From contig JBEKXF010000003.1 in assembly GCA_049512315.1 (NCBI GenBank), positions 124,001-187,569 of the forward strand: 63,569 nt of DNA, in the 5' to 3' direction. Positions 38,090-58,425 of this stretch are shown in pieces. The position numbers and the translations under genes are program-made. The DNA comes from Candidatus Aminicenantales bacterium (lineage in GTDB: Bacteria > Acidobacteriota > Aminicenantia > Aminicenantales > Saccharicenantaceae). Each line of letters opens with the position of its first letter. Within the stretch, counting starts at the first letter, position 1. The notes under the pieces are model-generated. The model had not been told where the DNA came from and searched no databases. It saw only the letters and a program-made list of their open reading frames with translations.

Positions 38090-38118
38090 AAACTAGCAGA
38101 AATCCCCCGGCCTGTCAA
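38090..38118 (-). promoter_or_regulatory. sigma70 promoter for tRNA-Gly-Cys
   Basis: Minus strand TTGACA-N17-TAGTTT with extended -10 TG. Confidence 0.6.
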
Positions 38119-40356: not shown

Positions 40357-40796
40357 TGAGGGTTCTGGGCATCGACTACGGGGACCGCCACGTCGGCCTC
40401 GCCCTGAGCGACCCCCTCCTGATCACGGCCCAGCCGTTCGGCACCTACAAGCTCACCGGGCGGGAGGAGGAGGACCGGAAGTTTTTCCAGGACCTGGTCG
40501 CCCGCCACGACGTCCAGAAGATCGTCATCGGCGACCCGCTCCGGATGGACGGCAGCTCCGGGACCAGGACCGAGAAGACGCGGCAGTTTTCCGCCTGGCT
40601 GGAAAAGGCCGTCGGGAAGCCCATCGTCTTCATCGACGAGCGCCTGACGACCCGCGAGGCCCTCCAGCTCCTCCGGGAAGGGAACGTCAGAGGCCGGGAA
40701 AAAAAGGACCGCGAGGACCAGATCGCGGCCGTCATCATCCTCTCAACATACCTGGAGCGCAAGCGCGGTGGCCCGGATGGTCGTCAGGGCAGCTAA
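40356..40796 (+). CDS. ruvX: YqgF/RuvX family nuclease (pre-16S rRNA processing)
   Basis: TGATG overlap; LGIDYG...VGLALSD, IVIG.P..MDG, DERLTT, D..AA.IIL..YL. Confidence 0.93.
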   Translation: MRVLGIDYGDRHVGLALSDPLLITAQPFGTYKLTGREEEDRKFFQDLVARHDVQKIVIGDPLRMDGSSGTRTEKTRQFSAWLEKAVGKPIVFIDERLTTREALQLLREGNVRGREKKDREDQIAAVIILSTYLERKRGGPDGRQGS

Positions 40797-41787: not shown

Positions 41788-41912
41788 AATCTGATATATT
41801 GATTCGTTCTTTGAGCCGAAACGCTCGCGTGAGGGTCAAAGGAAGGCTGTAAAAAACCTTTACAGATCCCACGGGGTTTTCTCGAAGGACGGAGGATTCC
41901 AGCCAGAGTGGT

Positions 41913-41928
41913 TGGCATGAGAATTGCT
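41913..41928 (+). promoter_or_regulatory. sigma54 (-24/-12) promoter
   Basis: TGGCAT-GAGAA-TTGCT, 45 nt upstream of ATG 41974, in an AT-rich intergenic region. Confidence 0.75.
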
Positions 41929-41973
41929 CTAAAAGAATATGGAATGGACAATGGCGTTTTTTAAGGAGGAAAA

Positions 41974-43125
41974 ATGAAAGCCTCAAGAATCGTTGTTCTC
42001 GGCCTCATCCTTATTTTCTCTCTGAGTTTGTTCAACGTCTTCGCCCAGGCGACGTCCGGGCAAAAACAAGAGCCCAAGAAGCAGGAAGCGAAGCCGCCGC
42101 AAAAATCCCTCATCCCCAAAGAGATCAAGGCGATCATCCAGGAAGGCCTGGCGCCCCGGCAGGGGCGTCAGGACATCCCCTTCACGATCTTCAAATATAT
42201 GGCTTTCCCAGCCAAGGATGGGATGTATACGGTCATCTTCTTCAAGGCCAAGAACGCGGACTTCGGCTACGCGGCCCCGGTTCCCGCCGCGCCTCAAGGT
42301 AAGCAAGCCCAGCCCGCCGCTCCGCCCGCCGGGACGCTCGAGGCCCGCTTTGCGCTGGTTCTCGAGTTCTTCCAGGCCGACGAAGCCGGAGCCCTGAAGG
42401 CAACCGGCGAAAGGAGCATTCCCGTGACCCTTCAGGCGGACAGCGCCGGCTATGATCCCGCCAAGGAAGAGTGGTACGCTCTGACTGTCGGACTGCCCTA
42501 TGGGAAATATACGATCGCCATGCTCCTCGCGCCCATCGATCCGAAGAAGGGGACCGCCGACATTAAAAGAGTCGGTGTCGGCTATTACGACATCACCCTC
42601 CCGGGGGTCGAGACCTACCAGAGCGCCATCGACACGACTCCCGTCTTCTACGCCAAGGACATTCAGCAGATGAATTCGTACGAGGCCAAGCCGACCGTCC
42701 ACCGGGGTCTCTTCACCTATTCCGTTCTCCAGATCGTTCCCAATATCGACAACGTCGTCACGGCCGAGGACAAGTCCCAGATCGAGGTCTTCTGCATCGT
42801 CCTCGGGGCCAAGGCCAAGGTGGAATCTTCCACTCAGCCGGCCTCCCAGCCCCAGCAGCAGACATACGACCTCGAGGTCAATTACGAGATCCAGAAAGGG
42901 GACGGCGCGGCGGTCATCAAGTGGCAGACCCAGACCTACGCCAGTCCGCTCATCGACCAGCCCCTGCCCCTGAAGCAGACCAAGGTGACGACCGACCAGG
43001 CCACGGGGAAACAGTCGACCTCACAGTCGGACCTGGCTTCCGGCAAGTATCAGCTGGTCGTCAAGGTCAAGGACAAGGTTTCCGGGTTCACCGTCGAAAA
43101 GAAAGTCCCGTTGGAAGTCAAATAA
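41974..43125 (+). CDS. Secreted hypothetical protein with two beta-sandwich domains resembling the C-terminal part of GWxTD-type proteins
   Basis: SD AAGGAGG; signal peptide ending VFA; LPYGKYTIAML and DLASGKYQLVVKVKDKVSG Ig-like strand motifs. Confidence 0.7.
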   Translation: MKASRIVVLGLILIFSLSLFNVFAQATSGQKQEPKKQEAKPPQKSLIPKEIKAIIQEGLAPRQGRQDIPFTIFKYMAFPAKDGMYTVIFFKAKNADFGYAAPVPAAPQGKQAQPAAPPAGTLEARFALVLEFFQADEAGALKATGERSIPVTLQADSAGYDPAKEEWYALTVGLPYGKYTIAMLLAPIDPKKGTADIKRVGVGYYDITLPGVETYQSAIDTTPVFYAKDIQQMNSYEAKPTVHRGLFTYSVLQIVPNIDNVVTAEDKSQIEVFCIVLGAKAKVESSTQPASQPQQQTYDLEVNYEIQKGDGAAVIKWQTQTYASPLIDQPLPLKQTKVTTDQATGKQSTSQSDLASGKYQLVVKVKDKVSGFTVEKKVPLEVK

Positions 43126-43170
43126 GAACGGGGACAACGGCCCGGGGGGCCCTCGCCGCGGGGCATGGCC

Positions 43171-44094
43171 TCAAGGGCCGCCCTTGATCTCGAAGATCTT
43201 CCGGACCTTCCCTTTGGACCCTTCCTTGCCCTTGATGATCACGTCGACGAAGTTCTTTCCGGGCTTCAGGGGGTAGGTGAACCTGAACGTGACATCCCCC
43301 GATTTTTCGTAGACTTGGTCCCTCGTGACAAAAGACTTGCTCTCCGTGGAGATGTCCCTTTTCGCGCCTTCGTTCTCATAGATGTAGAACTTGAAATCAA
43401 GGTCCACCTGGAGCTTGCCCTCGGCGTTCTCCTTGAGCAAGAGGAACTTGGCCGGGATGAGGACGACGAGCTCCTTCTTCGGCGGATCATACCTCAGCTT
43501 GAAGTCGACGGACCTTTTCTTGAAGACCGAATCCGGCCCGACCCATTGCCCGAGCTTGAAGAGATCCATGGCCCCGAAGAGATCCCCGGAATAGTTGCGG
43601 ATCTTGTACTGACCGTTGTTCCGCTCGTCGACGAACTCGACGCCGAAATCGTCGCTGTAATAGATCCACTGGATGATGGATCCCCGGACCGTCGAGTCCC
43701 CGTGGTTAAAGAATTCCTCGACCTTCTCGGGAGGGCCCATGAAGATAAAGATCCGGCCCCGGTCCGTGTTCATGCCCAGCCCCCCTTCGCGGAAATGCTT
43801 GTTGGCATAGGCGACCCGGCTCTCGTACTCCCTCTTGAAGACGTTGGTCCCGGAATCCGGGTCGGGGTCCCGCTTGTCCCAGAAGTCCTTGATGAACTCC
43901 TTCCGGGCGTCGGCGTCCGGCAGGAGCTTGAAGATCTTGCTCTCTTCGGCCGTCATGATGATCCGAGCCATCTGATAGAACTTCTCGCTCTCCGCGTCCA
44001 TCTTGGCCCCGGCCGGCCCCCGGCCGCCGCCTCGGGCCGCGGAGCTCAGGGCCGCCATCATCCACAGGATAAGAAGCGCCCTTTTCGCGTTCAT
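43171..44094 (-). CDS. GWxTD domain-containing exported protein
   Basis: IIMT.EE.K.F..L...R..FI.DFW.KRDPDP....N.FK.EY..RVAYAN..F...GMNTDRGRIFI.MGPP; N-terminal signal peptide. Confidence 0.88.
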   Translation of the reverse strand: MNAKRALLILWMMAALSSAARGGGRGPAGAKMDAESEKFYQMARIIMTAEESKIFKLLPDADARKEFIKDFWDKRDPDPDSGTNVFKREYESRVAYANKHFREGGLGMNTDRGRIFIFMGPPEKVEEFFNHGDSTVRGSIIQWIYYSDDFGVEFVDERNNGQYKIRNYSGDLFGAMDLFKLGQWVGPDSVFKKRSVDFKLRYDPPKKELVVLIPAKFLLLKENAEGKLQVDLDFKFYIYENEGAKRDISTESKSFVTRDQVYEKSGDVTFRFTYPLKPGKNFVDVIIKGKEGSKGKVRKIFEIKGGP

Positions 44095-44124
44095 GACAGC
44101 CTCCCCGCCGGCGCGTTCCCGGCC

Positions 44125-45039
44125 CTATTTTTTTAAATATTGAAGGAGCTGCTTGGCCACAGGGGCCTTCTCGTGGTCGGGGGCCAGCTGGAGGAACTTT
44201 TCCAGGTTGGCGATGGCTTCCGGGACCCTGTTCTGGCCGATCATGAGCGTTCCGATCTGGTAGTAGGCATCGGCGTAGTCCGGCTTGAGCTCGACAGTCT
44301 TCTGGAACTGGGCCAGGGCGGCTTCGGGCTCTCCCGTAGTGCTCAGGCAGAGGCCCAGGTTATAGCGGGCATCGGCGTTGTCGGGACTGAGGCTGACGGC
44401 CTTTTCGTAATAGGGCTTGGCATCGGCGAGGGTTCCCGCCCGGGCCAGGGCTTCCCCGATCTCCTTGTTGGCACTGGGGCTCGCCGGATTGAGCTCAGCC
44501 GCCTTTTTGAAAGCGGCCAGGGAATCTTCGAGCTTGTTCAGCTTCTTCCTGGACAGGCCGAGGTTGAGGTAGTACTGCCAACTCCCCGGGTCGAGCTTGA
44601 TGGCCTCCTCATAGACGGCGGCCGCGTCGGCAAAATTCCCGCCGGCGTAGAGCTTGTTTCCTTTGAGGAACAGCCGGTCGGCCTCCGACAGGGTTTTCTG
44701 GGCCGCGACGTCCGCAGGCTTCAGACGGGCTTCGAACGGCGTCGTCTCGTCGATGCTCACGCGGACTTCGTTCGAGCTCGGGGCGAAGCCTTCTTTCTTG
44801 AGGTTGATCAAGTAATTGCCGGGGGTCAGCCCGACCTGGATGAACTTGCCGTTCTTGTCGGTCGTGAGCTCGTAATGGACGCTCACCGTCCGCTGGGAGA
44901 CGATGCTGACGGCGACTTTTTCCAGGGGATTTCCGGCGGAGTCCAGGACGCTGCCCTGGATGCGACCCTGCGTCTGGGCCCAGGCCGCCGAAAGGGTCAG
45001 GGCCAGGAGGACGGCAACGAATCCGCTTTTTCTGATCAT
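44125..45039 (-). CDS. Secreted carboxypeptidase-regulatory-like domain plus TPR protein
   Basis: Signal peptide ending AWA-Q; GRIQGSVLD..G.PL...TTD.NGKF...GL.PG.Y...KEGF; about five TPRs; ATG 45039. Confidence 0.85.
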   Translation of the reverse strand: MIRKSGFVAVLLALTLSAAWAQTQGRIQGSVLDSAGNPLEKVAVSIVSQRTVSVHYELTTDKNGKFIQVGLTPGNYLINLKKEGFAPSSNEVRVSIDETTPFEARLKPADVAAQKTLSEADRLFLKGNKLYAGGNFADAAAVYEEAIKLDPGSWQYYLNLGLSRKKLNKLEDSLAAFKKAAELNPASPSANKEIGEALARAGTLADAKPYYEKAVSLSPDNADARYNLGLCLSTTGEPEAALAQFQKTVELKPDYADAYYQIGTLMIGQNRVPEAIANLEKFLQLAPDHEKAPVAKQLLQYLKK

Positions 45040-45049
45040 GGAGACTCTC

Positions 45050-47119
45050 CTATCTCTGTCCCAGGCTTTTTTTCGCCCTCTCCGCGAGCTCCCTGATCGA
45101 AGGCTGGTCCGGGACAAGTGACAGCGATTTTTGGAGGAGGGGCAGGGCCTTTTCCGGATGGCCGAGGTTCAGATGGCATTCGGCCGCCAGGTTCAGGACG
45201 CTGACCTCCGTGGCCTCGGCCTGGAGCTTTTCGAGATAGACCAGGGAGGAGTTCCAATCCTTCAAACCCGCGTAGTCGAGAGCGATGACCTTGGCTGCCT
45301 CCCGGTCCGGGGCGCGTTCATAGAAGGGGAGAGATTGCTTGAGGGAGTCTTCGAACCGGCCGAGCCCGTAAAGGGTCTTGGCCAGAAGAAGGCGGGCGGC
45401 CGGGTCGTCCCGGGCCTGCAACGCCCGCTCCAAAATGCCCCGGGCGCGCTCGTAATCTCCGGCCAGAAAATACTGGGAACCTATCGTCCTCAGGTGTTCG
45501 AGGCCGGGGAACGGGGCCCGGAGCCTGGAGTAGACCCAGGGCAAGACGGGGAATGGCTGGGCAAGGACGATGAAATTCTCTTTTTCGGAAAGAACTTTCT
45601 GCCCGGACGGCGCCAGGGCCGAAACCTCGGCCGTGTAGTATCCGGGTTTGACGTCGGCCAGGGAAAATGTCCCCGTCACGGACAGAGTCGCGGGGTCGTT
45701 TCCGGCGCCGGAGACATCGGAAAGCTGAAGGTGGCTCAGGCTCCTGCCGGTTTCGAGGGCGAAGACTTCCAGGACAAATGTGGGCGGCCCGGAGAGCTTC
45801 AGCCGGTCGAGATTCCAGGCCTGGAAGAAAATACCCATTTTCTCGGCCGGAAGGAACTCGTTCCGGGCGCCGACGAGATACTGGAACCCGTCGAACGCGA
45901 AGGCCTTGAGGCTGGCTTTCTGGGCGTCGGCGACGGCGTCCCGGCCGTGGGTGAGGAGCGGAACGCTGAGCCCGGCCTTCCCTTCCCCGGGGACCGAGAT
46001 CATGGTTTCGAAGGACGAGAAATCCTTGGCGGTTTTGTTTTTCAGGAGAAAGAGGGCCTTGTGCTCGCCGGGGATGACGGGTAGGAGGTCCTGGAAAGCA
46101 AAGCGCTGGCGTTCGTGGGTCTTGTACTGTTCGGCCGTCAGCTTCAGCGGGATCTCCTCGGTCCTCTCGAAGACCGGGAGCCCCTGGCCGTTCTCGAGCC
46201 GCAGGACGAGCTCGAAGCTGGCGTAGATCGAGCTTCCCTGGGTCGCGAAATTCATTTTCTCCGGCTCGATGGTCCAGGCAAGGAAAGGCTGCCCGGCCGC
46301 CTTGAGGACCTTCACCTGGAAGGCGCTCGCAAGGTAGCGATCGGAATATTCTGTTTCGACGAGATCCTTGTAGGAAAGATAGGAGCGGGCGTAGCCGTCG
46401 GAATACTTCTTTTCCGGGAACTGTTTGATGGCAGCGATGATGTTGTCCGAGGAGAAGCTGCCCATCCCTCCGGGCCTGTCCCCCGGGAGGTAGCTCTGGG
46501 CGGCTGAGGCCAGCTCGGAGTTGACCTTCTTGACGACCTGGAGGGCGGTCGAGCGCTGGGAGGTGTCGATCGACATCTGGGGGATGGTGAGCTTCTCCGG
46601 ACCCTCGATCCCCGGATAATAAAGCCGGTAATCCCCGATGCCCTCGGGCTGGTAGAAGATGAGGTAGAAATAGGCAGGCAGGCCGAACTCCTCCTCGCCC
46701 TTGTAGAACCAGAGCTCGCACGGCCAGATCTCGGAGTTGGTCGTGAAATAGCGGCGCTCGAGAGGCGGCCCGAGCAGAAGATAGTAAAAGCCGCGTTCCG
46801 TCTGACTGCCCCGCTTCGGGGAATAGTGGCCGAAGTACTGGTCGGCGAACCGGACTCGTTCCATGTACTCCTTCTTGAACTCGTTTTCCGAGGTGTCCGG
46901 GGTCGGGTCGCGGACCCGCCAGAAAAACACGACAAATTTGGCCCGCTCGGCGGCGGTCCGGAGCTTGAGGAAGACATCCTTCTCGGTCTTGGTGATGATT
47001 GGCGCAACGTCCTCGAGCCAGAGCCGCTCTTCGGGCGTCAGCTTCTCCTGGGCGGAGAGTGCGGCCGAGGCGAGGGCGACGGCCAAAACCAGCAACGGAG
47101 CATATTTCTTCATGCGCAT
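45050..47119 (-). CDS. GWxTD domain protein with beta-sandwich domains and C-terminal TPRs
   Basis: Signal peptide; WLEDVAPIIT..EK.VFL.L....ER..F...FW..RDPTPDT.ENEFK.EY..RV.FAD...GSQTERG..Y.LLGPP; C-terminal TPRs. Confidence 0.9.
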   Translation of the reverse strand: MRMKKYAPLLVLAVALASAALSAQEKLTPEERLWLEDVAPIITKTEKDVFLKLRTAAERAKFVVFFWRVRDPTPDTSENEFKKEYMERVRFADQYFGHYSPKRGSQTERGFYYLLLGPPLERRYFTTNSEIWPCELWFYKGEEEFGLPAYFYLIFYQPEGIGDYRLYYPGIEGPEKLTIPQMSIDTSQRSTALQVVKKVNSELASAAQSYLPGDRPGGMGSFSSDNIIAAIKQFPEKKYSDGYARSYLSYKDLVETEYSDRYLASAFQVKVLKAAGQPFLAWTIEPEKMNFATQGSSIYASFELVLRLENGQGLPVFERTEEIPLKLTAEQYKTHERQRFAFQDLLPVIPGEHKALFLLKNKTAKDFSSFETMISVPGEGKAGLSVPLLTHGRDAVADAQKASLKAFAFDGFQYLVGARNEFLPAEKMGIFFQAWNLDRLKLSGPPTFVLEVFALETGRSLSHLQLSDVSGAGNDPATLSVTGTFSLADVKPGYYTAEVSALAPSGQKVLSEKENFIVLAQPFPVLPWVYSRLRAPFPGLEHLRTIGSQYFLAGDYERARGILERALQARDDPAARLLLAKTLYGLGRFEDSLKQSLPFYERAPDREAAKVIALDYAGLKDWNSSLVYLEKLQAEATEVSVLNLAAECHLNLGHPEKALPLLQKSLSLVPDQPSIRELAERAKKSLGQR

Positions 47120-47300
47120 GGGGTCTCTTTCACTAAGATATCATACGCCCTACGGGTATTCAAATTCGGACCGGGCGGAAAGGGCGCTCCGGCGTGAATG
47201 AGCGTCCGACGTTCAGCCCTGCCGCGCCCTTCTCATCTCTATAATAATCGCTTGAATTGCGACCCTCGCTTGAATAGATTAATGACAGAGGGAGAGAATC

Positions 47301-50081
47301 ATGACCAAGAAATGCTTTCTGATCCTGGCCACCATCTTGATTCTCGGGACCACGCTCTTCCCCCAGTCCCGGGAGACAGGCGCCATCCGAGGCGTCGTCA
47401 CGGACGAGCAGGGGACGCTCCTGCCCGGCGTCAACATGACGCTTTCGGGCGGAAACCTCATGGGGGTGCGCACCTTCGTCACCGACTCCAGCGGAGAGTT
47501 CAGGTTCCCGGCCCTGCCTCCCGGCGTCTACCAGGTCAAGGCCGAGCTCCAGGGCTTTGGGACGGTTGTCCAAGAGAAGATACGATTGACGACGACGACC
47601 ACGCTGGCCGTTGAGATCAAGCTGAAGGCGTCGACCATCGCCGAGCAGGTTACGGTCATCGCCCAGTCTCCGACCGTCGACGTCAAATCGACGGAGACGG
47701 CCTCCGTGACCCTCACCAACGAGGTCCTGCGCAACATCCCCTATTCCCAGTTCACGGCCGACATCGTCAACATGGCTCCGGGAGTCAACAATAACGTCGC
47801 CTACGGCGGTTCGTCGGACACCGGCATCGCTTATTCGATGGACGGGGTCAACGTCGCCGACCCGGAAGCCGGCTCCGCCTGGGTCTTTCTCGATCACAAC
47901 ATCATCGAGGAAGCCAAGGTCATGGGCATCGGTCTGCCGGCCGAATACGGCAACTTCACGGGCGTCATCTTCAACCTCGTGACCAAGTCCGGCGGCAACC
48001 AGTTCGCGGGTCACGTCGAATTCGATTTCCAAGGCAAGAAGGGCGACTGGCCGAAGGGGCTCTGGCAGACCAATAATAACCAGGCCTACACGACGGATTT
48101 CCCCGATCTGACGTCTCCTCTCTCGAAACTCCTCGACATGAACGCCCACCTGGGCGGACCTATCATCCGGGACAAGCTCTGGTTCTATGCAGGAATCCAA
48201 TACTACCACTCACAGGACTACCCCACGGGCTTCCCCGAGGCGGTGGCCTACAAGCAGCCCCGGGGCTTCCTCAAGCTGACGGCCCAGCTGACCCGGACCC
48301 TGAACGCCAGCGCTTCGATCGAGATCGATAACTACAAAGGCGTCAACCGCGACGGCGGGGCCACGGTATCGCCCGAGGCGACGGTGACCCAGGATTCGCC
48401 CGAGATCGTCGCCAACTTCAATTTGACCAAAATTCTCAGCCCCAAGACGTTCTTTGACATCAAGGGTGCTTACTTCTCCGGCTATTACTACCTCGACCCG
48501 GCGGTCGGCCGGACGCCCTACATGCATTTCGATTACGCCGACAACATGCAGAGAGACAGCTCCGGATATTTTTTCTACGCCGACCGGAGCCGGTTCCAGG
48601 CCAACGCCAGCCTGACCCACTACGTCGAGAACTTCATCAAGGGCAGCCATGACTTCAAGTTCGGCGTCGAGGTCGAGCGCTCGGACGTCCGCGACCGCTA
48701 CGGCTACACTGGAGTGGGCGGGGCCCTGGGCGACCACGTCAAGTATTTTAACTACTCCGGCCAGCCGTACCTGGCGTACCAGTTCGAAGGCTACGACACG
48801 GACACGCACTATACGAGGGTCGAGGGCTTCCTTCAGGATTCCTGGCAGATCACGAAGCGCCTGAACCTGAGCGCCGGCGCCCGCCTCAGCCATTTCTGGG
48901 GCCAGGTCAAGAACGTGAGCGGCAACCTCTACAACGCCGGCCGGATCGTCCCCCGGCTGGGCTTTACCTTCGACCTCTTCGGCGACAAGAAGACCGTCCT
49001 CAAGGGGCACTTCGGCCAGTTCACGGAAGCCATGCTGTCCCAGTTTCTCGACAGGATGAACCCGGCCTCCGCCTATCATGACTATGTCGGATATATCTAT
49101 GGAGAAGGCGGATGGAGCGAATTCGAGAGAATCTCCCACGAGGACCTCTACCACATGGACCCGAACATCAAGCATCCGTACATGCAGCAATTCACGCTCG
49201 GCCTCGAGCGGGAGCTCTTCAAGGACTCGTCACTCAGTGTGACCTATATCAACCGGCAATGGAAGAGCCTCGTCGGGGCGATCGACCGGGCGGCGGACTA
49301 CAACCTCATCGACTACACAGTCCCCTATGCCTGGAACTCCTCGACGAAACAATGGGAAGCGGGCTCGACGGTCTATCCAATCTATGAACGGACCCCTGAC
49401 ACGACGAGCTCGTTCGATTACCTGATCACCAATTACTCCACGGCCGACAGTCCCTGGGTCCTCGACAATCCTGTCCGCAAGTACCAAGGAGTGGAGTTCC
49501 TCTTCAACAAACGTTTCTCGAACCGCTGGCAGCTTCTGGCCTCCTACGTCCTTTCGCGGGCGACGGGGACCCTCGACAACGTCATGGCCAGCGATCTCGG
49601 GAGGGCGACCGGCATCAACATCTCGGACCCCAACACCTGGATCAACGCCCGGGGCCATCTGACCAACGACCCGACCCACATGATCAAGGTCCAGGGCACC
49701 TACCTTATTCCCTGGGCCGAGGTCAACTTCAACGTCTACTTCCGGGCCATCACCGGCGACGCCTGGACGACCCGCTACCAGACGGACTTCCTGAACCAGG
49801 GCCGGGTCACCTTCTTCCTCGAGCCGCGCGGGACGAGCCACTATCCGATGCACAAGCTCCTGGACCTTCGGCTCGAAAAGATCGTCACCCTGGCCAGGAG
49901 GTACCGGCTCGGACTCATCGTCGACGTTTTCAACGTCTTCAATGCCCGGATGATCAACTCGTGGGGCACCCGCCTCGGCTACGACTGGAACCTGGGAGAT
50001 TGGCCGTCGACGAGCGGCCACGAGCTCTACGACATCGTTCTTCCGCGACAGGCCAGGGTCGGGATCCGGGTCATTTTCTGA
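47301..50081 (+). CDS. Oar-type TonB-dependent receptor with N-terminal carboxypeptidase-regulatory-like domain (paralog 1)
   Basis: Signal peptide; GAIRGVVTDEQG..LPGV; plug (APGV...DGV...IEE.KV...PAEYG..TG.I.NLVTKSGGN.F.G); HDFKFG, QDSWQI, PRLGF.FD, C-terminal RVGIRVIF. Confidence 0.93.
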   Translation: MTKKCFLILATILILGTTLFPQSRETGAIRGVVTDEQGTLLPGVNMTLSGGNLMGVRTFVTDSSGEFRFPALPPGVYQVKAELQGFGTVVQEKIRLTTTTTLAVEIKLKASTIAEQVTVIAQSPTVDVKSTETASVTLTNEVLRNIPYSQFTADIVNMAPGVNNNVAYGGSSDTGIAYSMDGVNVADPEAGSAWVFLDHNIIEEAKVMGIGLPAEYGNFTGVIFNLVTKSGGNQFAGHVEFDFQGKKGDWPKGLWQTNNNQAYTTDFPDLTSPLSKLLDMNAHLGGPIIRDKLWFYAGIQYYHSQDYPTGFPEAVAYKQPRGFLKLTAQLTRTLNASASIEIDNYKGVNRDGGATVSPEATVTQDSPEIVANFNLTKILSPKTFFDIKGAYFSGYYYLDPAVGRTPYMHFDYADNMQRDSSGYFFYADRSRFQANASLTHYVENFIKGSHDFKFGVEVERSDVRDRYGYTGVGGALGDHVKYFNYSGQPYLAYQFEGYDTDTHYTRVEGFLQDSWQITKRLNLSAGARLSHFWGQVKNVSGNLYNAGRIVPRLGFTFDLFGDKKTVLKGHFGQFTEAMLSQFLDRMNPASAYHDYVGYIYGEGGWSEFERISHEDLYHMDPNIKHPYMQQFTLGLERELFKDSSLSVTYINRQWKSLVGAIDRAADYNLIDYTVPYAWNSSTKQWEAGSTVYPIYERTPDTTSSFDYLITNYSTADSPWVLDNPVRKYQGVEFLFNKRFSNRWQLLASYVLSRATGTLDNVMASDLGRATGINISDPNTWINARGHLTNDPTHMIKVQGTYLIPWAEVNFNVYFRAITGDAWTTRYQTDFLNQGRVTFFLEPRGTSHYPMHKLLDLRLEKIVTLARRYRLGLIVDVFNVFNARMINSWGTRLGYDWNLGDWPSTSGHELYDIVLPRQARVGIRVIF

Positions 50082-50105
50082 TCCCGGCTCGGAACGCGTC
50101 CCAAC

Positions 50106-50134
50106 GGCGGCGGGCCCTCCCGCCGCCTTTTTTT
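50106..50134 (+). terminator. Rho-independent terminator after receptor 1
   Basis: GGCGGCGGG-CCCT-CCCGCCGCC followed by T7. Confidence 0.85.
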
Positions 50135-50245
50135 ATCCAAAAATATGCATCGGATCTGCTTCGGATCCAATTTTTTATGCGTGCCGGGCGCCGACTAGAA
50201 GCCGATCTTGCTGATCGTTAATAAGTTACGGGACGACGATGCTGT

Positions 50246-50261
50246 TGGCACCGATTTTGCT
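50246..50261 (+). promoter_or_regulatory. sigma54 (-24/-12) promoter upstream of receptor 2
   Basis: TGGCAC-CGATT-TTGCT, a full match to the consensus. Confidence 0.78.
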
Positions 50262-50327
50262 GCGATGAAGGCGGACCGGGAAGTGTCCGATTCTGGGAAA
50301 AAGGCCAGGGCGAAGAATTCAAATTTC

Positions 50328-50357
50328 TTGACACGGACGCTTTCTTTTTATGATAAT
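50328..50357 (+). promoter_or_regulatory. sigma70-type promoter upstream of receptor 2
   Basis: TTGACA-N18-GATAAT. Confidence 0.55.
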
Positions 50358-50577
50358 GTGGTCGAAATTATGAGGATCCTGAAAGCCAGAGACCTTCACC
50401 GGCTGACCTCGCGCCTAGCCTACGTTCTCAACCCCGGACTCTAACGGCCCTGAATCCCGGCATGAAAACCAGGGGGTTTCCTGTTATATCCTTAATTCAG
50501 AGGAGGTGACGCACGAGAAACGATCCGATCGAACAGGCACTCGTCATAACGTTTGGAAATCTGGAATGGAGGGAAAT

Positions 50578-53451
50578 ATGAAAAAACCTACCCTCTTCGT
50601 ACTAGCACTCCTCCTCCTCACCGCGTTCACGTTCTCCCAGTCCCGCGAGACCGGGGCCATCACGGGCAGGGTGGCCGACGAGCAGGGAACCTCCCTGCCC
50701 GGCGTCAACCTGACACTGAGCAGCCAGAAACTGATGGGCATCCGGACGACCGTCAGCGACTCGAACGGGGATTTTCGCTTCCCGGCTCTTCCGCCCGGCG
50801 TTTACAGCTTGAAGGCCGAGCTCCAGGGCTTCGGGACGGTCGTCCAGGAGAATATCCGCTTGACGACCACGGTTACCCTGAGCCTGAGCCTCACCCTGAA
50901 GCCCTCGACCGTCGAGGAAAAGGTCACGGTCATCGCTAAATCGCCGACGGTCGACATCAAGTCCACAGAGACGGCCTCGGTCACCCTCGGCGAAGAAGTC
51001 CTGTCGAATATTCCGAACAGCCACTTCACGGCCGACATCGTGAACCAGGCGCCGGGCGTTACCGACCGCGTCGCCTACGGCTCCGCCGTCAGCCGCGGCG
51101 TGTCCTGGCAGATGGACGGCGTGGGCGTCGGCGACCCGGAGGGCGGCACGGCCTGGGTCTTCCTCAACTACAACATCATCGAGGAAGCCAAGGTCATGGG
51201 CGTGGCCCTGCCGGCCGAATACGGGAATTTCACCGGCGTCATTTTTAACCTGGTCACGAAGCAAGGGGGAAACCAGTTCTCCGGGACTTTCGAGGTCGAC
51301 GCCCAGGGCCACGAGGCCCGGGAAGGCCTCAAAGGCACCTTCCCCGGCGGCTCCCTCTGGGGCACGGAAAATAACAGTGCCTATCGCGCCGATTGGCCGG
51401 ACATCACCTCTCCCCTGTCGGCCCAGCTTGACGCCAACGCCCAGCTCGGCGGTCCGATCATCAAAGACAAGCTCTGGTTCTTCGGCGGGGCCCAGTGGTA
51501 CCGGACCCAGAACTTCGCCACGGGCTTCCCATTTGCCCAGGACTATAAGCAGCCCCGACTCTTCTTTAAGCTGAACAACCAGACTACGCCGACCCTGAAC
51601 ATCGGGGCGTCCTTCGAATGGGACAACTACAACGGCACCTACCGCGGGGCAAGCGCCACGGTCTCTCCGGAGGCGACCGTCAACCAGATCGATCCCAATG
51701 TCATCGGGAACTTTACCCTGACGAAGATCTTCAGTCCCAAGACGTTCTTCGACATCAAGGCCGCCTTCTTCAGCGGTTACTACAACCTCGAGCCGCGGAC
51801 GGGCCGGGACATCGCCGGGCACTATCTGGACAATACCAACCCCGACCTCCCGCCTGGAGATCCCAACGGCATCGGGCACATGCGGCACTTCAACTCGGGC
51901 TACTTCGGGGAAAACGACCGGAGCCGGTATCAGCTCAACGCCAGCCTGACCCACTACGCCGAAGACTTCATCAAAGGCAGCCACGATTTCAAGTTCGGCG
52001 TCGAGCTCGAGCGATCCATCTCCCGGACCCATTACGGCTACACCGGTCCGGGGGCCTTTTATTATGAAGACTATTGGGGTCCGGCCTACTATTTCCCCGG
52101 ATATAAGCCCGGCTATTATTACACGGGGAACTACCTCCGCACGCAGTACGTCGGCTACAATTACAAAGCCCGGCTCACCCGCCTCGAAGGGTTCGCCCAG
52201 GATGCCTGGCAGATCACCAAGCGCTTGAACCTCAGCCTGGGCTTGCGCTTCAGCCAGAACTGGGGGTCGCTCGCGGGGACGCCCAGCATACAATACAAGG
52301 CGTCTCGCCTCGCCCCGCGGCTGGGCCTGACGTTCGACCTCTTCGGCGACAAAACGACGGTCCTCAAGGCCCACTACGGGCAATACACCGACGGGATGTA
52401 CGCCGCCATCTTTGACCTCGCCGACTCGAGTTATTCGGATAAGGTCTACGAGAAATGGAACCCGCTGACGCAGGCCTGGTATGAAACCAGCCGGGCCGTC
52501 CACGGGACCTATGTCATAGACCCCGGCATCCGGCACCCTTACATGATCCAGTTCACGGCCGGTATCGAACGCGAGCTCTTCAAGGACGCGTCGTTCTCCG
52601 TGACCTACATCAACCGGAGCTTCAAGAACTTCATCGCCGCCATCAACGAGAATGCCGTGTACACGCCCCGCACGGTCAATGTCCCTGATCCCATCGGCAA
52701 GTCGTACACTGTTTTCGACAACACAGGAGGGGCCGACACACCCGCCTGGCACATCACGAACGTCGATAATTTCGCACCGTTCTTCGATCCCTTGCTGAGC
52801 CCCGGGGGCTTCGCGGTCAACCCCTACCGGAAATACTGGGGCCTCGAGTTCCTGTTCAACAAACGCTTCTCCAACCGCTGGCAGCTCCTTGCTTCCTACG
52901 TCTACTCCGTGACCAAGGGCACCATGGACAACAACTCGGCCTACGAGGACATCGGCTTCGGCCGGGGGACCTACGATCCGAATTTCTGGATCAACGCCGA
53001 CGGGCATGTCACGGTCGACCTGCCTCACCAGATCAAGGTCCAGGGGACCTACGCCATACCATACGTGGGCGTCAACTTCAGCCTCTATTACCAGGGCATC
53101 TCCGGCTACACCTGGACGACACGGTATCGGACGCAGTCCTTCAGCCAGGGGCGGATCACCTTCTTTGCCGAGCCGCGCGGCACGGGGCGCTACCCGTTCT
53201 GGAACAACGTGGACGTCCGGCTGGAAAAAACGTTCAACCTGGCGCAGAGATACAAACTCGGGCTGATCTTCGACATTTTCAACCTCTTCAACGCCAATAC
53301 GATCACCAGCTGGGGCACGCGCCTCACGAGGTCCACCGGCTATGACTATTTCCCCATGGACCCGACGTATTCCGTCTCGACGGACCATCACGACCTCTTG
53401 GGTCTGACCTTGCCCAGGCGGGCCAGGCTCGGCATCCGGTTCACGTTCTAG
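50578..53451 (+). CDS. Oar-type TonB-dependent receptor (paralog 2)
   Basis: ATG 50578 after GGAGG; same architecture as paralog 1 with long identical stretches; C-terminal RLGIRFTF. Confidence 0.93.
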   Translation: MKKPTLFVLALLLLTAFTFSQSRETGAITGRVADEQGTSLPGVNLTLSSQKLMGIRTTVSDSNGDFRFPALPPGVYSLKAELQGFGTVVQENIRLTTTVTLSLSLTLKPSTVEEKVTVIAKSPTVDIKSTETASVTLGEEVLSNIPNSHFTADIVNQAPGVTDRVAYGSAVSRGVSWQMDGVGVGDPEGGTAWVFLNYNIIEEAKVMGVALPAEYGNFTGVIFNLVTKQGGNQFSGTFEVDAQGHEAREGLKGTFPGGSLWGTENNSAYRADWPDITSPLSAQLDANAQLGGPIIKDKLWFFGGAQWYRTQNFATGFPFAQDYKQPRLFFKLNNQTTPTLNIGASFEWDNYNGTYRGASATVSPEATVNQIDPNVIGNFTLTKIFSPKTFFDIKAAFFSGYYNLEPRTGRDIAGHYLDNTNPDLPPGDPNGIGHMRHFNSGYFGENDRSRYQLNASLTHYAEDFIKGSHDFKFGVELERSISRTHYGYTGPGAFYYEDYWGPAYYFPGYKPGYYYTGNYLRTQYVGYNYKARLTRLEGFAQDAWQITKRLNLSLGLRFSQNWGSLAGTPSIQYKASRLAPRLGLTFDLFGDKTTVLKAHYGQYTDGMYAAIFDLADSSYSDKVYEKWNPLTQAWYETSRAVHGTYVIDPGIRHPYMIQFTAGIERELFKDASFSVTYINRSFKNFIAAINENAVYTPRTVNVPDPIGKSYTVFDNTGGADTPAWHITNVDNFAPFFDPLLSPGGFAVNPYRKYWGLEFLFNKRFSNRWQLLASYVYSVTKGTMDNNSAYEDIGFGRGTYDPNFWINADGHVTVDLPHQIKVQGTYAIPYVGVNFSLYYQGISGYTWTTRYRTQSFSQGRITFFAEPRGTGRYPFWNNVDVRLEKTFNLAQRYKLGLIFDIFNLFNANTITSWGTRLTRSTGYDYFPMDPTYSVSTDHHDLLGLTLPRRARLGIRFTF

Positions 53452-53475
53452 CTCTTTCCCTGCAGACGCTCGAAG

Positions 53476-53507
53476 GGGCGGCGGGCCGGCCCGCCGCCCT
53501 TTTTTTT
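53476..53507 (+). terminator. Rho-independent terminator after receptor 2
   Basis: GGGCGGCGGG-CCGG-CCCGCCGCCC followed by T8; homologous to the receptor 1 terminator. Confidence 0.88.
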
Positions 53508-53616
53508 CCTCAAAAGGCGCTCAAAATCAACTTGACGGGGCCCTCCGGACGGCTGCCCGGGCGGATCGCTGCGACAGGAAATCCAGACGGATTTATGCTA
53601 GAATTCGTTCTTCATC

Positions 53617-55944
53617 ATGAATGCCAAGAAGCGGCTGATCTCCGGCGCGGTTGTCCTGGCCGTGCTCCTGCTCTGCGCGACGGCCTATCTTTTCCTATGG
53701 CCGGGGAGGCCGGATTTCGCCCGCCTCCGAGGCCGGAAAGACTTCAACGTCATCCTGATCACTCTCGACACGACCCGCGCCGACCGCCTCGGCTGCTATG
53801 GCTTCAAGAACATCGAAACCCCGACGATCGACATGTTCGCGGGGAAGGGGATCCGGTTCGAAGATTGTATTTCCACGACGCCATTGACCCTGCCCGCCCA
53901 TACGTCGATCATGACGGGGACGCTGCCGCCCTTTCACGGCGTCCGGGACAACGGCGGGTTCCTCGTCCCGGCCGGGATCAAGACCCTGGCCAAAATCTTC
54001 AAGGGCAAGGGCTATGCCACGAGCGCGTTTGTCGCCGCCTATGTCCTCGATTCCCACTGGGGGCTCAATAAGGGCTTCGATTTCTATTATGACCGGTTCG
54101 ACTTGAGCAAGTTCGAGAAGATATCCCTCGGCGACGTTCAACGCCCTGGAAACGAGGTCATCGATAAGGTCTTGCCCTGGCTCGAGCAGAACAAAGGCCG
54201 GAAATTCTTCACCTGGGTCCATCTGTATGACCCCCATACGCCTTACGATCCCCCCGCACCCTACGACAAGCTCTACGCCGAACACCCTTATCTCGGCGAG
54301 ATCGCCTTCGCCGATTCCCAGATCGGGCGGCTCTGGCATTACCTCGAGGCCCAGGGCCTTACGGATAACTTGTTCCTCGTGTTTGCCGCCGACCACGGCG
54401 AAAGCCTGGGCGAGCACCAGGAAGCCTCCCACGGCTTTTTCGTTTATCAGGCCGCCGTCCATGTGCCCCTGATCTTCGTCACGCCCTTCACGAAGATTCA
54501 GGGCGTCGTTTCGCCGGGAGTCGTCTCGATCGCCGACATCATGCCCACGGTCTGCGAGATGACCGGCACGCCCATCCCTCCCCAGGTCCAGGGGAAGAGC
54601 CTGGTGTCCGCGTTCTTCAACCCGAAACGCACGCCGGAAAGCTACGCTTATTCCGAGACGTTCTATCCGCGGTTCCACTACGGCTGGTCCGAACTCGAGG
54701 CCATCCAGGACGCCCGGTACAAGCTCATCCTGTCGCCCGTGCCGGAACTCTATGACCTGGTCAAGGATCCCCAGGAAGAAAAGAACCTCGTCTACCTGGA
54801 AAAGAAGGTGTTCGAGGACATGAGCGCCGCGGCCCAAAAGTTCATCGCCAAGTCGAGCCAAAACGCCTACGAATTCGACGTGCGGAAGATCGACGAAGAC
54901 ACCCGCGAGAAGCTGGCCGCCCTGGGCTACATCGGCTCCTTCACCGACCCGGCCAAGCTCAAGGGCCAGAAACTCGGAAACCCCAGGGAGAAAATCGGCA
55001 TCTTCAACGAGCTCAACCGGGCCCGCGAGATCGGCATGTCCGACCAGGCCGAGGAGGCGATCAAGATCGTCAAGGGGATTATCGCGACCGACCCTGAGGT
55101 GACCGACGCCTATTTCACGCTCGGCAACATCTATTTCAAGGAGCGGCGGTTCAAGGAGGCCATCGCCCCGTTCCTTGCGGCCTTCGAAAAAAAGCCCGAC
55201 GATGCGTTCACGGTCATCAACGTCGCCAATTCCTACATCGCGATGAGGAAGTTCGACGAGGCCGAGGCCTTCGTCCTGGATTATTTCAAGAAAGGGTTCT
55301 CCGACGCCCAGCTCTATTACCTCCTCGGCAACATGAACTTCGTCCAGAAGAAATACGACAAGGCCATTCCCTATTTCGAGAAGTGCCTGTCCCTCAATGA
55401 CCAATCCGTCTCCTCGCATAACGCCCTGGCCGCCATTGACATCGACCAAGGCAACCTGGCCGGAGCCGACGAGCACATCCAGGCGGCGCTGAAGATCAAT
55501 CCCGAGCAGACCAACGTCCACTATAATCTGGCCCAGCTCCTCGAAAAGCAGGGCAAGATGCGCGAAGCCGCCGACGCTTACCTTCAAGAGATCCAGATTT
55601 CCCCGAGCCACCTCAAGGCCCTGTTCAACCTCTCGAGACTCTACCGGCTGGCGGGGGATGAGGAGAAGGAACTCGAATATCTGAAGAAAGCCGTCGAAGC
55701 CAACCCTCGATTCCCCATGAGCTACTTATATATCGCCAGGATTTATCTCAACCGCGGGGCGAATTATCAAGAAGCCATCACCATGGCCAGGAAGGGTGTT
55801 GATCTCGGGCCCGACAAAAGCGACCTGGCGCTCGGCTACTTTCTGCTGGCCGATCTTTATAACCGCGTCGGGGACGACGCCCGGTCGCGGGAATTCGCCC
55901 AAAAAGGCCAGGCCCTCGCCTCGGCGCTTAAGGGGAAGAATTAG
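53617..55944 (+). CDS. Membrane-anchored sulfatase-like (alkaline phosphatase superfamily) hydrolase/transferase with C-terminal TPRs (paralog 1)
   Basis: N-terminal TM; NVILITLDTTRAD, PLTLPAHTSIMTG, HLYDPH.PY, ADHGE, ELYDL..DP.E..N, LAALGY; then TPRs. Confidence 0.9.
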   Translation: MNAKKRLISGAVVLAVLLLCATAYLFLWPGRPDFARLRGRKDFNVILITLDTTRADRLGCYGFKNIETPTIDMFAGKGIRFEDCISTTPLTLPAHTSIMTGTLPPFHGVRDNGGFLVPAGIKTLAKIFKGKGYATSAFVAAYVLDSHWGLNKGFDFYYDRFDLSKFEKISLGDVQRPGNEVIDKVLPWLEQNKGRKFFTWVHLYDPHTPYDPPAPYDKLYAEHPYLGEIAFADSQIGRLWHYLEAQGLTDNLFLVFAADHGESLGEHQEASHGFFVYQAAVHVPLIFVTPFTKIQGVVSPGVVSIADIMPTVCEMTGTPIPPQVQGKSLVSAFFNPKRTPESYAYSETFYPRFHYGWSELEAIQDARYKLILSPVPELYDLVKDPQEEKNLVYLEKKVFEDMSAAAQKFIAKSSQNAYEFDVRKIDEDTREKLAALGYIGSFTDPAKLKGQKLGNPREKIGIFNELNRAREIGMSDQAEEAIKIVKGIIATDPEVTDAYFTLGNIYFKERRFKEAIAPFLAAFEKKPDDAFTVINVANSYIAMRKFDEAEAFVLDYFKKGFSDAQLYYLLGNMNFVQKKYDKAIPYFEKCLSLNDQSVSSHNALAAIDIDQGNLAGADEHIQAALKINPEQTNVHYNLAQLLEKQGKMREAADAYLQEIQISPSHLKALFNLSRLYRLAGDEEKELEYLKKAVEANPRFPMSYLYIARIYLNRGANYQEAITMARKGVDLGPDKSDLALGYFLLADLYNRVGDDARSREFAQKGQALASALKGKN

Positions 55945-56100
55945 GCTGGCGCGCCGTCCGTCAGTCCTTGAATTTCCGCTGGATCTCGGCCCGGCCCCCG
56001 TCAAGGGTGTTCATCCGGCCCGTCCTCCTCTTCTTTCAAGGGAAGGGCAGAGCCGGCAGGGGAAATCGGGCCTGTTTTATGGTAGAATTTTGACTTCCAG

Positions 56101-58425
56101 ATGAAATCCCATAAATTCCTGTTCTTGGCCGCGGCCGGGATCGTCATCGCCGGAGCCGCCGCGGCCTACTTTTTGTTTTTCCCCAGGGGGGCGGACTTCG
56201 CCTCGCTCAGGAAGGGCCGGGATCTCAACGTTATCCTCATCACCCTGGACACGGCCCGTGCCGACGGACTGGCCTGCTACGGATGCAAGGACGTCCAGAC
56301 GCCGACGATCGACGGGTTTGCCGCCCGGGGCGTCAGGTTCGAGAGGTGCTACGCCCAGACACCGCTGACGCTTCCCTCCCACACGACTCTCATGACCGGA
56401 ACCCTGCCCCTTTTTCACGGGGTCAGGGACAACGGCGGGTTCCTCGTTCCGCAGAAGCTGGTCACGATGGCCGAGCTTTTCAAGGATAAGGGCTATGAAA
56501 CCGGGGCCTTCATCGCGGCCTACGTCCTGGATTCCAAGTGGGGCCTGAACCAGGGATTCGACACCTACTTTGACAAGTTCGACCTGAACAAGTTCCAGAG
56601 GGTTTCGTTGGAGACGGTCCAGAGGCCGGCCAACGAGGTCATGGACGAGGCCCTACCCTGGCTGGAGAAAAAGAAGGACAAGAAGTTCTTCGCCTGGATC
56701 CATCTCTACGACCCGCATTCCCCTTATGAGCCCCCGCCGCCTTACGACAAGCAGTACGCCGCCCATCCTTATCTCGGGGAGATCGCCTTCGCCGACTCTC
56801 AGCTCCACCGGCTCTGGCAGTTTCTCGAAACGAACAACCTCCTCGGGAATTCCCTCATCGTTTTCGCCGGCGACCACGGCGAGAGCCTCGGCGAGCACGA
56901 GGAGAAAACTCACGGCTTCTTCGTCTATCAGGCGGACATCCATGTCCCGCTCATTATCGTCACGCCTTTCCCGAAGCTCCAGGGGATCGTCTCTCCCGAG
57001 GTCGGGGGCCTGGTCGACGTCCTGCCGACGGTCTGCGAAATGGCCGGGCTTCCCATCCCGGGCGAGGTCCAGGGAAAAAGCCTGGTACCGGCCTTCTATG
57101 GCCGCCGCCGCACAGGGCCCTCCCTGGTCTACAGCGAAACCTACTACCCCCGGTTCCACTTCGGCTGGTCGGACCTCAAAAGCGTCCAGAACGCACGTTA
57201 TAAGCTGATCCTGGCCCCGGTGCCCGAGCTTTATGACATCGCCACCGACCCCCGCGAAGAAAAAAACCTCGTCAATCTCCAAAAAAAGGTCTATGAGGAC
57301 TTGAACGCCGAGGCCGAGGCCTTCATCCAGAAGTCGAGCCGGAACGCCTACGAGATGGATACTTCAAGGGTCGACCAGGAGACTCGGGAGAAGCTGTCCG
57401 CTCTCGGCTACGTCGGTTCGTTCACGGACCCGGCCAAGCTCAGGGGAAAGACACTGGCCAACCCCAAAGAGAAGATCGCCGTTTTCAACGAGCTCTCCCG
57501 GGCCCGGGAAATTGGCATAAACGGGAAACCCGACGAGGCGATCAAGGTCATCCAGGGGATCATCGCCACCGACCCGGACATCACCGACGCCTACTTCTCG
57601 ATCGGGAGCCTCTACGTCCAGGAGCGGAAATACGGGGAGGCCATCGATTATTTCAAGCAGGTCCTGGACCGGAAGCCGGACGAGACCTTCGCGGCCCTCA
57701 ATATCACGCGTTCCTACGAGAGGATGGGAAAGCTCGAGGAGGCGGAACATTTCGCCCTGGATTATCTGCAGAAGGGCTTCGAGGAGCCCCAGCTTTATTT
57801 CATGCTCGGGAACATGAATTTTCTCCAGAAAAAGTACGACCAGGCCATCCCCTATTACGAAAAGTGCCTCTCGCTCAACACCGAATCCGCCGGCTCGTGC
57901 GACACCCTCGCCGCGATCTACATCGTCAAGGGCGACCTGACCCGGGCCGAGGAGTATCTCCGGAAAGCGCTCGAGCTCGATCCCCGGCTCGCAAACGTCC
58001 ATTACAGGATCGGTTGGATCGCCGAAAAGCAGGGCCGGCTCCAGGAGGCGGAAGCCGAATACGTGAATGAACTCCAAATCTCTCCCCAGCACTTCAAGGC
58101 CCTATACAACCTGGCCCGGGTTTACCAGACGACCGGAAACATCGAAAAGGAGCTGGAGACCCTGAAGAGGTGCCTGGAGGCCGACCCGAAATTCTCCCTG
58201 ACCTACTTCTACCTCGCCCGGCTCTACCTCATCCGGGGCGAACGCACCCAGGAGGCCATCGACTTCGTCAAGAAGGGCATCGACCTCAACCCCGAGGCAT
58301 CCGAGTTGCCCCTCGGCTACTTCCTTCTGGCCGACCTCTACAAGCGCGTCGGAGACAACGTCCGGTCACGGGAATGCGCGGAGAAGGGCCAGGCCCTGGC
58401 CGCGGCGCTCAAAAAGGGCAAGTAA
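56101..58425 (+). CDS. Membrane-anchored sulfatase-like hydrolase/transferase with C-terminal TPRs (paralog 2)
   Basis: NVILITLDTARAD, PLTLPSHTTLMTG, HLYDPHSPY, GDHGE, LSALGY; collinear with paralog 1 (774 vs 775 aa). Confidence 0.9.
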   Translation: MKSHKFLFLAAAGIVIAGAAAAYFLFFPRGADFASLRKGRDLNVILITLDTARADGLACYGCKDVQTPTIDGFAARGVRFERCYAQTPLTLPSHTTLMTGTLPLFHGVRDNGGFLVPQKLVTMAELFKDKGYETGAFIAAYVLDSKWGLNQGFDTYFDKFDLNKFQRVSLETVQRPANEVMDEALPWLEKKKDKKFFAWIHLYDPHSPYEPPPPYDKQYAAHPYLGEIAFADSQLHRLWQFLETNNLLGNSLIVFAGDHGESLGEHEEKTHGFFVYQADIHVPLIIVTPFPKLQGIVSPEVGGLVDVLPTVCEMAGLPIPGEVQGKSLVPAFYGRRRTGPSLVYSETYYPRFHFGWSDLKSVQNARYKLILAPVPELYDIATDPREEKNLVNLQKKVYEDLNAEAEAFIQKSSRNAYEMDTSRVDQETREKLSALGYVGSFTDPAKLRGKTLANPKEKIAVFNELSRAREIGINGKPDEAIKVIQGIIATDPDITDAYFSIGSLYVQERKYGEAIDYFKQVLDRKPDETFAALNITRSYERMGKLEEAEHFALDYLQKGFEEPQLYFMLGNMNFLQKKYDQAIPYYEKCLSLNTESAGSCDTLAAIYIVKGDLTRAEEYLRKALELDPRLANVHYRIGWIAEKQGRLQEAEAEYVNELQISPQHFKALYNLARVYQTTGNIEKELETLKRCLEADPKFSLTYFYLARLYLIRGERTQEAIDFVKKGIDLNPEASELPLGYFLLADLYKRVGDNVRSRECAEKGQALAAALKKGK

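Follow-up and report, generated by a model that had tools for sequence, protein, structure and literature searches.

It is well established that TonB-dependent transporters act by default in import, and in the SusC/SusD loci of Bacteroidota such a transporter, carrying a PF13620 or PF13715 N-terminal extension, is encoded beside cognate partner genes in many paralogous cassettes. As reported (PMC6434023), Oar of Myxococcus xanthus secretes PopC, its N-terminal extension is dispensable for this secretion, and the Oar architecture accounts for 28% of all TonB-dependent transporters and is dominant in Bacteroidetes. Here we describe a locus in a Candidatus Aminicenantales bacterium (assembly GCA_049512315.1, contig JBEKXF010000003.1) that invites comparison with both; the window, meaning the whole stretch of DNA analysed, is 63,569 nt long and comes from a genome that is 96.6% complete. 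Eight consecutive genes (g1 to g8) lie there between mltG and an endoQ-like gene, and four families recur among them and their relatives: a TonB receptor (g5, g6), a long GWxTD-Ig-Ig-TPR protein (g4), a Carb-TPR protein (g3) and a Thr-type enzyme-TPR protein (g7, g8). In gene trees g3 to g8 belong to one cassette type, A, and the small GWxTD gene g2 to another, B. The cassette is a real, conserved and undescribed variant of TonB-dependent cassettes, and a literature search on the system as a whole found nothing.

With the SusC/SusD loci the cassette shares its many paralogous copies and a TonB transporter with an N-terminal extension and cognate partner genes, and some copies have a glycoside hydrolase as a neighbour (5 of the 18 paralogous loci). 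Unlike those loci, it has no SusD, no lipobox on the type-A partners and no local sensor-regulator; it is apparently under sigma-54 control with a shared enhancer, and its enzyme is not a glycoside hydrolase or a true sulfatase. A first-pass annotation of the window had set it apart from conventional polysaccharide utilisation loci, and rightly so: no susD-like gene, glycoside hydrolase or sensor-regulator was found at the window's type-A locus, and there was no SusD_RagB match (PF07980) anywhere in the genome, a Bacteroides thetaiotaomicron control being positive. Of the neighbours of the paralogous copies (the nearest 80 of 141), 8 were glycoside hydrolases; of genes from random regions (83 of 91, screened at a slightly stricter E cut-off) it was 1 (p 0.017 when counted by gene).

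The likeness to Oar is one of architecture. The receptors g5 and g6 combine the PF13620 extension and a large barrel with a TonB-box-like motif that has the E-x-x-x-aliphatic spacing of Oar E118/I122 (PMC6434023); unlike Oar, the cassette locus comes with neither a Ton system nor a PopC-like protease. Since the architecture is so common and, in the same study, the extension is dispensable for PopC secretion, the label "Oar-type" does not imply secretion, and the lean of the first-pass annotation towards Oar secretion was given up.

The case for the cassette lies in how regularly its four families are found together. Searches of the window's own genome, on our own gene calling with a few genes added by hand, gave about 16 GWxTD genes, 13 PF13620-extended receptors, 8 enzyme-TPR genes and 8 Carb-TPR genes; a gene of a partner family lies within 5 kb of 10/16, 8/13, 8/8 and 7/8 of these, respectively, against about 5% for all genes. 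On contigs C8 and C31 all four families stand together on one strand. GWxTD matches are present in all 31 genomes of the order (15 in the window's own genome and 4-16 in each of 30 relatives), in none of 14 control genomes, and in 66 of the 81 Acidobacteriota genomes searched, a tally that counts one unpublished genome (G053), used for this tally alone. Linkage was counted in five near-complete relatives, which are kin and hence non-independent, among the matches listed in one search (150 of 161), with PF13620 matches sorted into receptors and Carb-TPR proteins by frame length plus search data (some 30 that fitted neither were left out) and enzymes split from sulfatase-like controls by score, their motif not inspected one by one: of 62 GWxTD genes, 49 have a receptor no more than 10 kb away (5.5 expected), Carb-TPR genes lie near a GWxTD gene in 32 of 34 cases (1.8 expected) and enzymes near a receptor in 38 of 45 (3.9 expected), and the control, weaker sulfatase-like matches near a receptor, gave 0 of 19 (2.0 expected).

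Gene order is kept as well. The g4 domain retrieved 115 loci; among the best 80, counting those with enough flank, the gene next downstream of the type-A long GWxTD gene is a g3-type Carb-TPR gene in 63 of 70, the gene next upstream is a g5/g6-type receptor facing it in 63 of 71, a g7/g8-type enzyme is found upstream in 44 of 53, and g1 is present in 41 of 57. The recurrent synteny and co-occurrence that had been proposed as a check on the first-pass annotation are found in many genomes. In another order, one locus (L224) carries the long GWxTD, small GWxTD, g1, Carb-TPR and receptor genes as a single co-oriented run. Outside the class, in a sample of 20 GWxTD loci (one strong match from each of 20 genomes, with no background control), 14 have a receptor, a PF13620 protein or an enzyme within 10 kb, and L196 has the full set. 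The cassette locus stays beside mltG in most of the order. A co-oriented run of mltG, enzyme-TPR and long GWxTD genes was also seen in another class (L188:8239-13712), which suggests that the mltG link predates this order.

Other neighbours of GWxTD genes were noted in passing. In three genomes the sole GWxTD gene is directly followed by a gene for a protein of 565-584 residues with an N-terminal PF13620 domain and a remainder without family (L181:6907-8604, L187:6926-8680, L197:11383-13086). In one other family, GWxTD genes are clustered with genes for FG-GAP / ASPIC-UnbV propellers (L190, L191, L193), and acidobacterial VWA-domain genes (TIGR03436, one of them under cut-off) stand beside a type-B and a type-C cassette of the window's own genome (L004:4568-5788, L009:2509-3474).

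Trees of the receptors, long GWxTD proteins, Carb-TPR proteins, enzymes and small GWxTD proteins resolved well-supported clades that travel together, and these define the cassette types A to D. Adjacent pairs share their type in 63 of 71 cases (shuffle mean 20.6, maximum 36), a concordance that is overstated since we matched the clade letters across families ourselves. That the families co-occur, keep their order and have diversified together supports a real, undescribed envelope system, and to this extent the candidate system of the first-pass annotation stands. Its picture of one eight-protein machine does not, nor does its emphasis on secretion: g2 is of the other cassette type and its kind occurs in 10 of the 57 type-A loci, the twin genes are duplications, and g1 and the receptor have different enhancer motifs.

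The history of the locus can be read from its relatives, as gene content at the mltG-endoQ site varies between genomes. At L041 and L044 both complete cassettes, A and B, stand between mltG-g1 and the distal end, with L034 as an intermediate; the window has lost its type-B cassette apart from g2, which is now an orphan. The twin receptors and twin enzymes, missing from many relatives, appear in the trees as lineage-level duplications inside type A. The eight-gene block is a vertically inherited copy of a repeatedly duplicated Aminicenantia cassette. Two further paralogues are broken by decay or assembly error, a small GWxTD gene with an internal TAG (G000:C20:41267-42133) and a Carb-TPR gene in two pieces (G000:C7:74450-75415).

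The layout drawn in the first-pass annotation proved accurate. All eight open reading frames are intact between mltG (YceG, 40768-41787) and the endoQ-like gene (TIGR00375 under cut-off, with a PHP_C domain), with the strands and domains as described; the minus-strand trio has gaps of 10 and 30 bp, TPRs are found in g3, g4, g7 and g8 and PF13620 in g3, g5 and g6, and the twins are paralogous, at 56% identity for g5 and g6 and 62% for g7 and g8. The G+C content is 0.59-0.63 within the block and 0.59-0.66 over the window. The most likely start of g6 is the ATG at 50578, judged by the GGAGG at 50568, rather than the GTG at 50506. The locus holds no regulator, and an Rfam scan of the window returned two tRNAs only, without a match in the g6 leader. 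Upstream of ddl-ruvX-mltG, at 37114-39075, lie the two tRNAs (37880-38058), a Yip1-family membrane gene and a gene whose exported product matches FlgT_C weakly.

Table 1. Genes and predicted regulatory features of the locus (window coordinates).
Feature	Position	Strand	Description
Palindrome TGTAAA-N5-TTTACA	41848-41864	+	Upstream of g1 sigma-54 promoter; candidate activator site
Sigma-54 (-24/-12) motif for g1	41913-41928	+	Consensus match
g1	41974-43125	+	383 aa, exported, two Ig-like beta-sandwiches; no family above cut-off
g2	43171-44094	-	Small GWxTD protein (GWxTD + one Ig-like domain), type-B clade
g3	44125-45039	-	CarboxypepD_reg (PF13620) + TPR, signal peptide, type A
g4	45050-47119	-	Long GWxTD protein: GWxTD + helical region (~residues 24-255), two Ig-like domains, C-terminal TPR; type A
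g5	47301-50081	+	TonB-dependent receptor 1: PF13620 extension, PF25183 barrel, type A
Terminator-like hairpin after g5	50106-50127	+	9 G-C pairs, T run
TGGA..TCCAA-type candidate activator site	50150-50170	+	Upstream of g6 sigma-54 promoter
Sigma-54 motif for g6	50246-50261	+	Consensus match
g6	50578-53451	+	TonB-dependent receptor 2: PF13620 extension, PF25183 barrel, type A
Terminator-like hairpin after g6	53472-53503	+	14 pairs
g7	53617-55944	+	N-terminally membrane-anchored alkaline-phosphatase-superfamily enzyme (PF00884, Thr91) + TPR, type A
g8	56101-58425	+	Paralogue of g7 (PF00884, Thr90) + TPR

Thr-nucleophile phosphodiesterases of the alkaline-phosphatase superfamily are known from the NPP family. 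In g7 and g8, which the first-pass annotation had recognised as Thr-nucleophile enzymes, the sulfatase motif is replaced by TLPAH (T91) and TLPSH (T90), respectively, and the T, P and H of this TLP[AS]H motif are invariant in 26 of 26 enzymes. So are D51, T91, H95, H202, H207, D259, H260 and H272, and D205 is conserved in at least 90%. In PorX, whose PglZ domain is a Thr-type phosphodiesterase of this superfamily, the ligands are D239, T272, D361/H365, D415/H416 and H500 (PMC9757075); D51, T91, D205, H207, D259, H260 and H272 follow the same order of Asp, Thr, Asp-His and further Asp/His/His residues, as compared by motif order and not by structure. The second-metal set of Thr nucleophile, Asp and Asp-His (D51, T91, D259, H260) is invariant. 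Compared with what is reported of PorX, the two enzymes are nearer in overall sequence to the formylglycine sulfatases (PF00884), have a D-P-H spacing, and carry a membrane anchor and a TPR fusion.

With the formylglycine sulfatases g7 and g8 share the fold family, and their closest solved relatives are sulfatases, for example choline-sulfatase 7oz8 (E 5e-33). They differ from them in having Thr at the nucleophile position and His in place of the sulfatase Arg, and all NCBIfam sulfatase models score far under cut-off. A sulfatase annotation was rejected, as the [CS]xPxR motif is missing. From their residues, the enzymes appear to keep a Thr-based, phosphodiesterase-like set. Their N-terminal segment is hydrophobic (median hydropathy 2.7), with a lipobox-like motif in 1 of 26, which suggests an inner-membrane anchor and a periplasmic catalytic domain.

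For the receptors, the PF13620 extension scored 61.6 bits on g5 and 66.2 on g6 (cut-off 32.3) and the PF25183 barrel 116 and 138 bits (cut-off 30), with PF00593 slightly below its cut-off of 27 (23.9 and 23.5 bits). The PF07715 plug was not matched in g5 or g6 and was weakly matched in four paralogues, and no solved relative of g5 was found by sequence. The g5 protein has a TonB-box-like EQVTVIA at 115 and a C-terminal Phe; a motif of this kind, judged by a TonB-box consensus, is present in 27 of 33 receptors, and the C-terminal Phe in 32 of 33. Genes for TonB_C and ExbB proteins are located elsewhere in the genome.

The GWxTD family (TIGR04514, PF20094) is large: its profile retrieved 12,997 clusters (at 50% identity) at E 0.001, and a literature search for the domain name and accessions, with subscription journals mostly outside its coverage, brought up nothing relevant. 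TIGR04514 scores are 95.5 bits for g2 and 86.3 for g4 (cut-off 28), and hhalign links g2 to the g4 family. No lipobox is found on g2, and in a rough test 1 of 37 and 1 of 61 type-A partners were positive for one. The AlphaFold model of g4 residues 24-525 has a pLDDT (predicted local distance difference test) of 87.2; fold searches with this 502-residue model matched the Ig domains only, and by sequence no solved structure matched the GWxTD domain below E 0.5. A resemblance of its C-terminal half to BamE/OmlA was unsupported, with no such Pfam family and with ESM Atlas matches that reached 0.81 and were unnamed. Complex prediction for g4 with g3 scored 0.00 in two runs, which is no evidence either way.

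More can be learned from how GWxTD is reused. Among 26 top matches, hand-picked for an unusual length or a repeated domain, 12 are fusions to BlaR1-type M56 proteases (P0361-P0364, P0368, P0370-P0372, P0374, P0375, P0378, P0436), mostly with two GWxTD domains in the extracytoplasmic part, and 3 have VWA domains. One of the twelve, P0362, also ends in TonB_C. In all five M56 fusions inspected GWxTD lies C-terminal to the last membrane segment, and a preprint names TonB_C, Plug and CarbopepD_reg_2 as domains often present in M56 proteins (bioRxiv 10.64898/2026.04.08.717257), where they would occupy this same slot. Since it takes the position of the sensor in BlaR1-like M56 proteins, GWxTD is probably a periplasmic binding module.

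The first gene of the block, g1, encodes a stand-alone homologue of the twin-Ig module of the long GWxTD proteins. Its AlphaFold model shows two Ig-like sandwiches (pLDDT 92.5), and its profile aligns with the middle of the g4 family over 215 columns (hhalign probability 80, E 1.4e-5) and, against GWxTD proteins of other classes, reaches E values as low as 1e-22; a direct BLASTP of g1 against g4 gave no match, so the homology is seen with profiles only. Loci L225 and L226, from other classes, encode fusions of GWxTD with a g1-like domain. The gene is present in 28 of 31 genomes, mostly in single copy, and in three genomes of another family (L218-L220) a full-length g1 stands without a partner in the fetched stretch. 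Fold searches returned generic Ig/FnIII matches (best Z 9.5, root-mean-square deviation 3.1, 97 aligned), and the best Foldseek match, RbmA, had a TM-score of only 0.21.

Transcription of the block is divided. A single operon was rejected on account of the terminator-like hairpins behind g5 and g6, and the block would comprise several transcription units. The window has only 2 sigma-54 motifs, those of g1 and g6, against 0.05 expected; both had escaped the first-pass annotation. The motif is kept before 40 of 42 g1 orthologues and 26 of 40 single type-A receptors, and it is found before none of the long GWxTD genes (0/76), enzymes (0/52) or mltG genes (0/46), on a background of 22 in 2732 genes; rpoN and about ten sigma-54 activators are present in the genome. 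Two candidate activator sites distinguish the promoters, both patterns being defined post hoc, after viewing the sequences: a TGTAAA-N5-TTTACA-like motif lies upstream of 33 of the 40 g1 promoters and of none of the 35 receptor promoters, a TGGA..TCCAA-like one upstream of 23 of the 35 type-A receptor promoters and of none of the g1 promoters. The latter motif also precedes the C8 and C20 receptors of the window's own genome, and receptors of types B and C there have it too.

Some further observations concern this regulation. The g6 leader of about 315 bases (50262-50577) contains a sigma-70-like site at 50328-50357 (11 of 12). An operon of a family-5 solute-binding protein, a histidine kinase and a sigma-54 response regulator (G000:C7:29820-34337, L055) has its own sigma-54 promoter with a TGTAAA-N5-TTTACA palindrome as at g1, and its response regulator is a candidate activator of g1. 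Genome-wide, 19 intergenic sigma-54 motifs precede g1, five receptors, a pilin-like gene, a ComEA-like HhH protein, two DUF6600 proteins, a BBP2 porin, M16 peptidases and several unnamed exported proteins.

How might such a cassette work? We think it somewhat probable that it serves SusD-independent, TonB-dependent import with periplasmic processing. A sigma-54 activator common to several receptor genes would turn the receptor on, and TonB-ExbBD, encoded elsewhere, would power the uptake of a bulky solute, for which a phosphodiester-linked oligomer (an oligonucleotide, or a phosphorylated glycan or wall-polymer fragment) is the likeliest candidate. The soluble periplasmic GWxTD and Carb-TPR proteins would act as cognate binding and hand-over modules at the inner face of the receptor, replacing the surface lid of SusC/SusD, and the inner-membrane-anchored enzyme would cut the phosphoester through a phospho-Thr intermediate. 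In this scheme g1 would be a twin-Ig accessory under regulation of its own, and g2 what remains of the second, type-B cassette. Both the substrate and the physical coupling of the cassette proteins are our inference. A wider proposal is more tentative, and we regard it as possible rather than probable: a phylum-wide SusD-independent TonB machine with GWxTD as the cognate periplasmic docking or ligand-binding module, Carb-TPR adaptors linking it to an inner-membrane-anchored enzyme from a Thr-type family not yet characterised, and GWxTD reused as a BlaR1-like sensor.

Several observations weigh against import by such a cassette. A GWxTD gene lies nearby for only 40 of 86 receptors in the five near-complete relatives, so that partners are dispensable for some receptors or act in trans; 6 of the 20 GWxTD loci of other classes have no partner within 10 kb, and distant metagenome Carb-TPR matches have none in 29 of 32 loci, many of them short contigs or TPR-only. 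The hydrolase enrichment is weak when counted per locus (5/18 against 1/20, p 0.083), peptidases are not enriched beside the paralogous copies, and the mltG-endoQ locus is surrounded by housekeeping genes, without a catabolic gene or an inner-membrane transporter. The first-metal candidates D205, H207 and H272 are conserved, but by sequence comparison their D-P-H spacing is unlike the D-x3-H of PorX (D361/H365; PMC9757075). Moreover, receptors of different clades have one enhancer motif in common, unlike substrate-specific utilisation loci, and the pilin and ComEA-like genes in the sigma-54 set hint at surface functions.

An alternative is an export or surface-modification role, in which the receptor secretes a periplasmic protein or a modified polymer, the Thr enzyme transfers a phospho-substituent, and GWxTD and TPR proteins act as chaperones. 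For most of the order the locus has a fixed place next to mltG, which is adjacent in another class too, and the sigma-54 motifs of the genome stand mostly before envelope genes, pilin included. Thr nucleophiles also occur in the phosphotransferases LtaS and EptA; these, however, have a multi-pass lipid-donor domain, and the cassette enzymes have a single N-terminal anchor. The only local secretion candidate, g1, has an enhancer motif other than that of the receptor, is present in one copy against about 13 receptors, and has the weak RbmA match as its best. Secretion of PopC by Oar offers a precedent (PMC6434023), yet it is weakened by the commonness of the architecture and the dispensable extension. 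We regard this role as unlikely.

Slightly more unlikely still, in our view, is that the GWxTD and Carb-TPR proteins do not handle the substrate but assist the folding or stability of their cognate barrels, monitor them, or signal whether the receptor is occupied. Such biogenesis or sensing accessories would fit the strict matching of receptor and partner clades, the sensor slot of the M56 transducers and the lone GWxTD genes that adjoin a 565-584-residue PF13620 protein; on the other hand, 46 of 86 receptors have no GWxTD neighbour, the locus has no regulator, and the co-diversification of a catalytic enzyme with the cassette would be left unexplained. A chance cluster of lineage-expanded families, for which the expansion of all four families and the shuffled gene content at the mltG-endoQ site might speak, was rejected as most improbable given the roughly tenfold excess of co-location with its clean control, the conserved order, the matched clades, the five-family operon of another order (L224) and the conserved promoters.

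What is new here are the cassette types and the history of the locus, the recognition of what g1 is, the pair of enhancer motifs and the fusions with M56 proteins. The locus puts the large GWxTD family into a defined cassette, where it is joined by a cognate receptor, adaptor and enzyme and where two promoters and two candidate activator sites are placed. If SusD-independent import is indeed its function, it would explain TonB-dependent uptake without SusD in a phylum abundant in soils and sediments, and would provide a new enzyme family that can be assayed.

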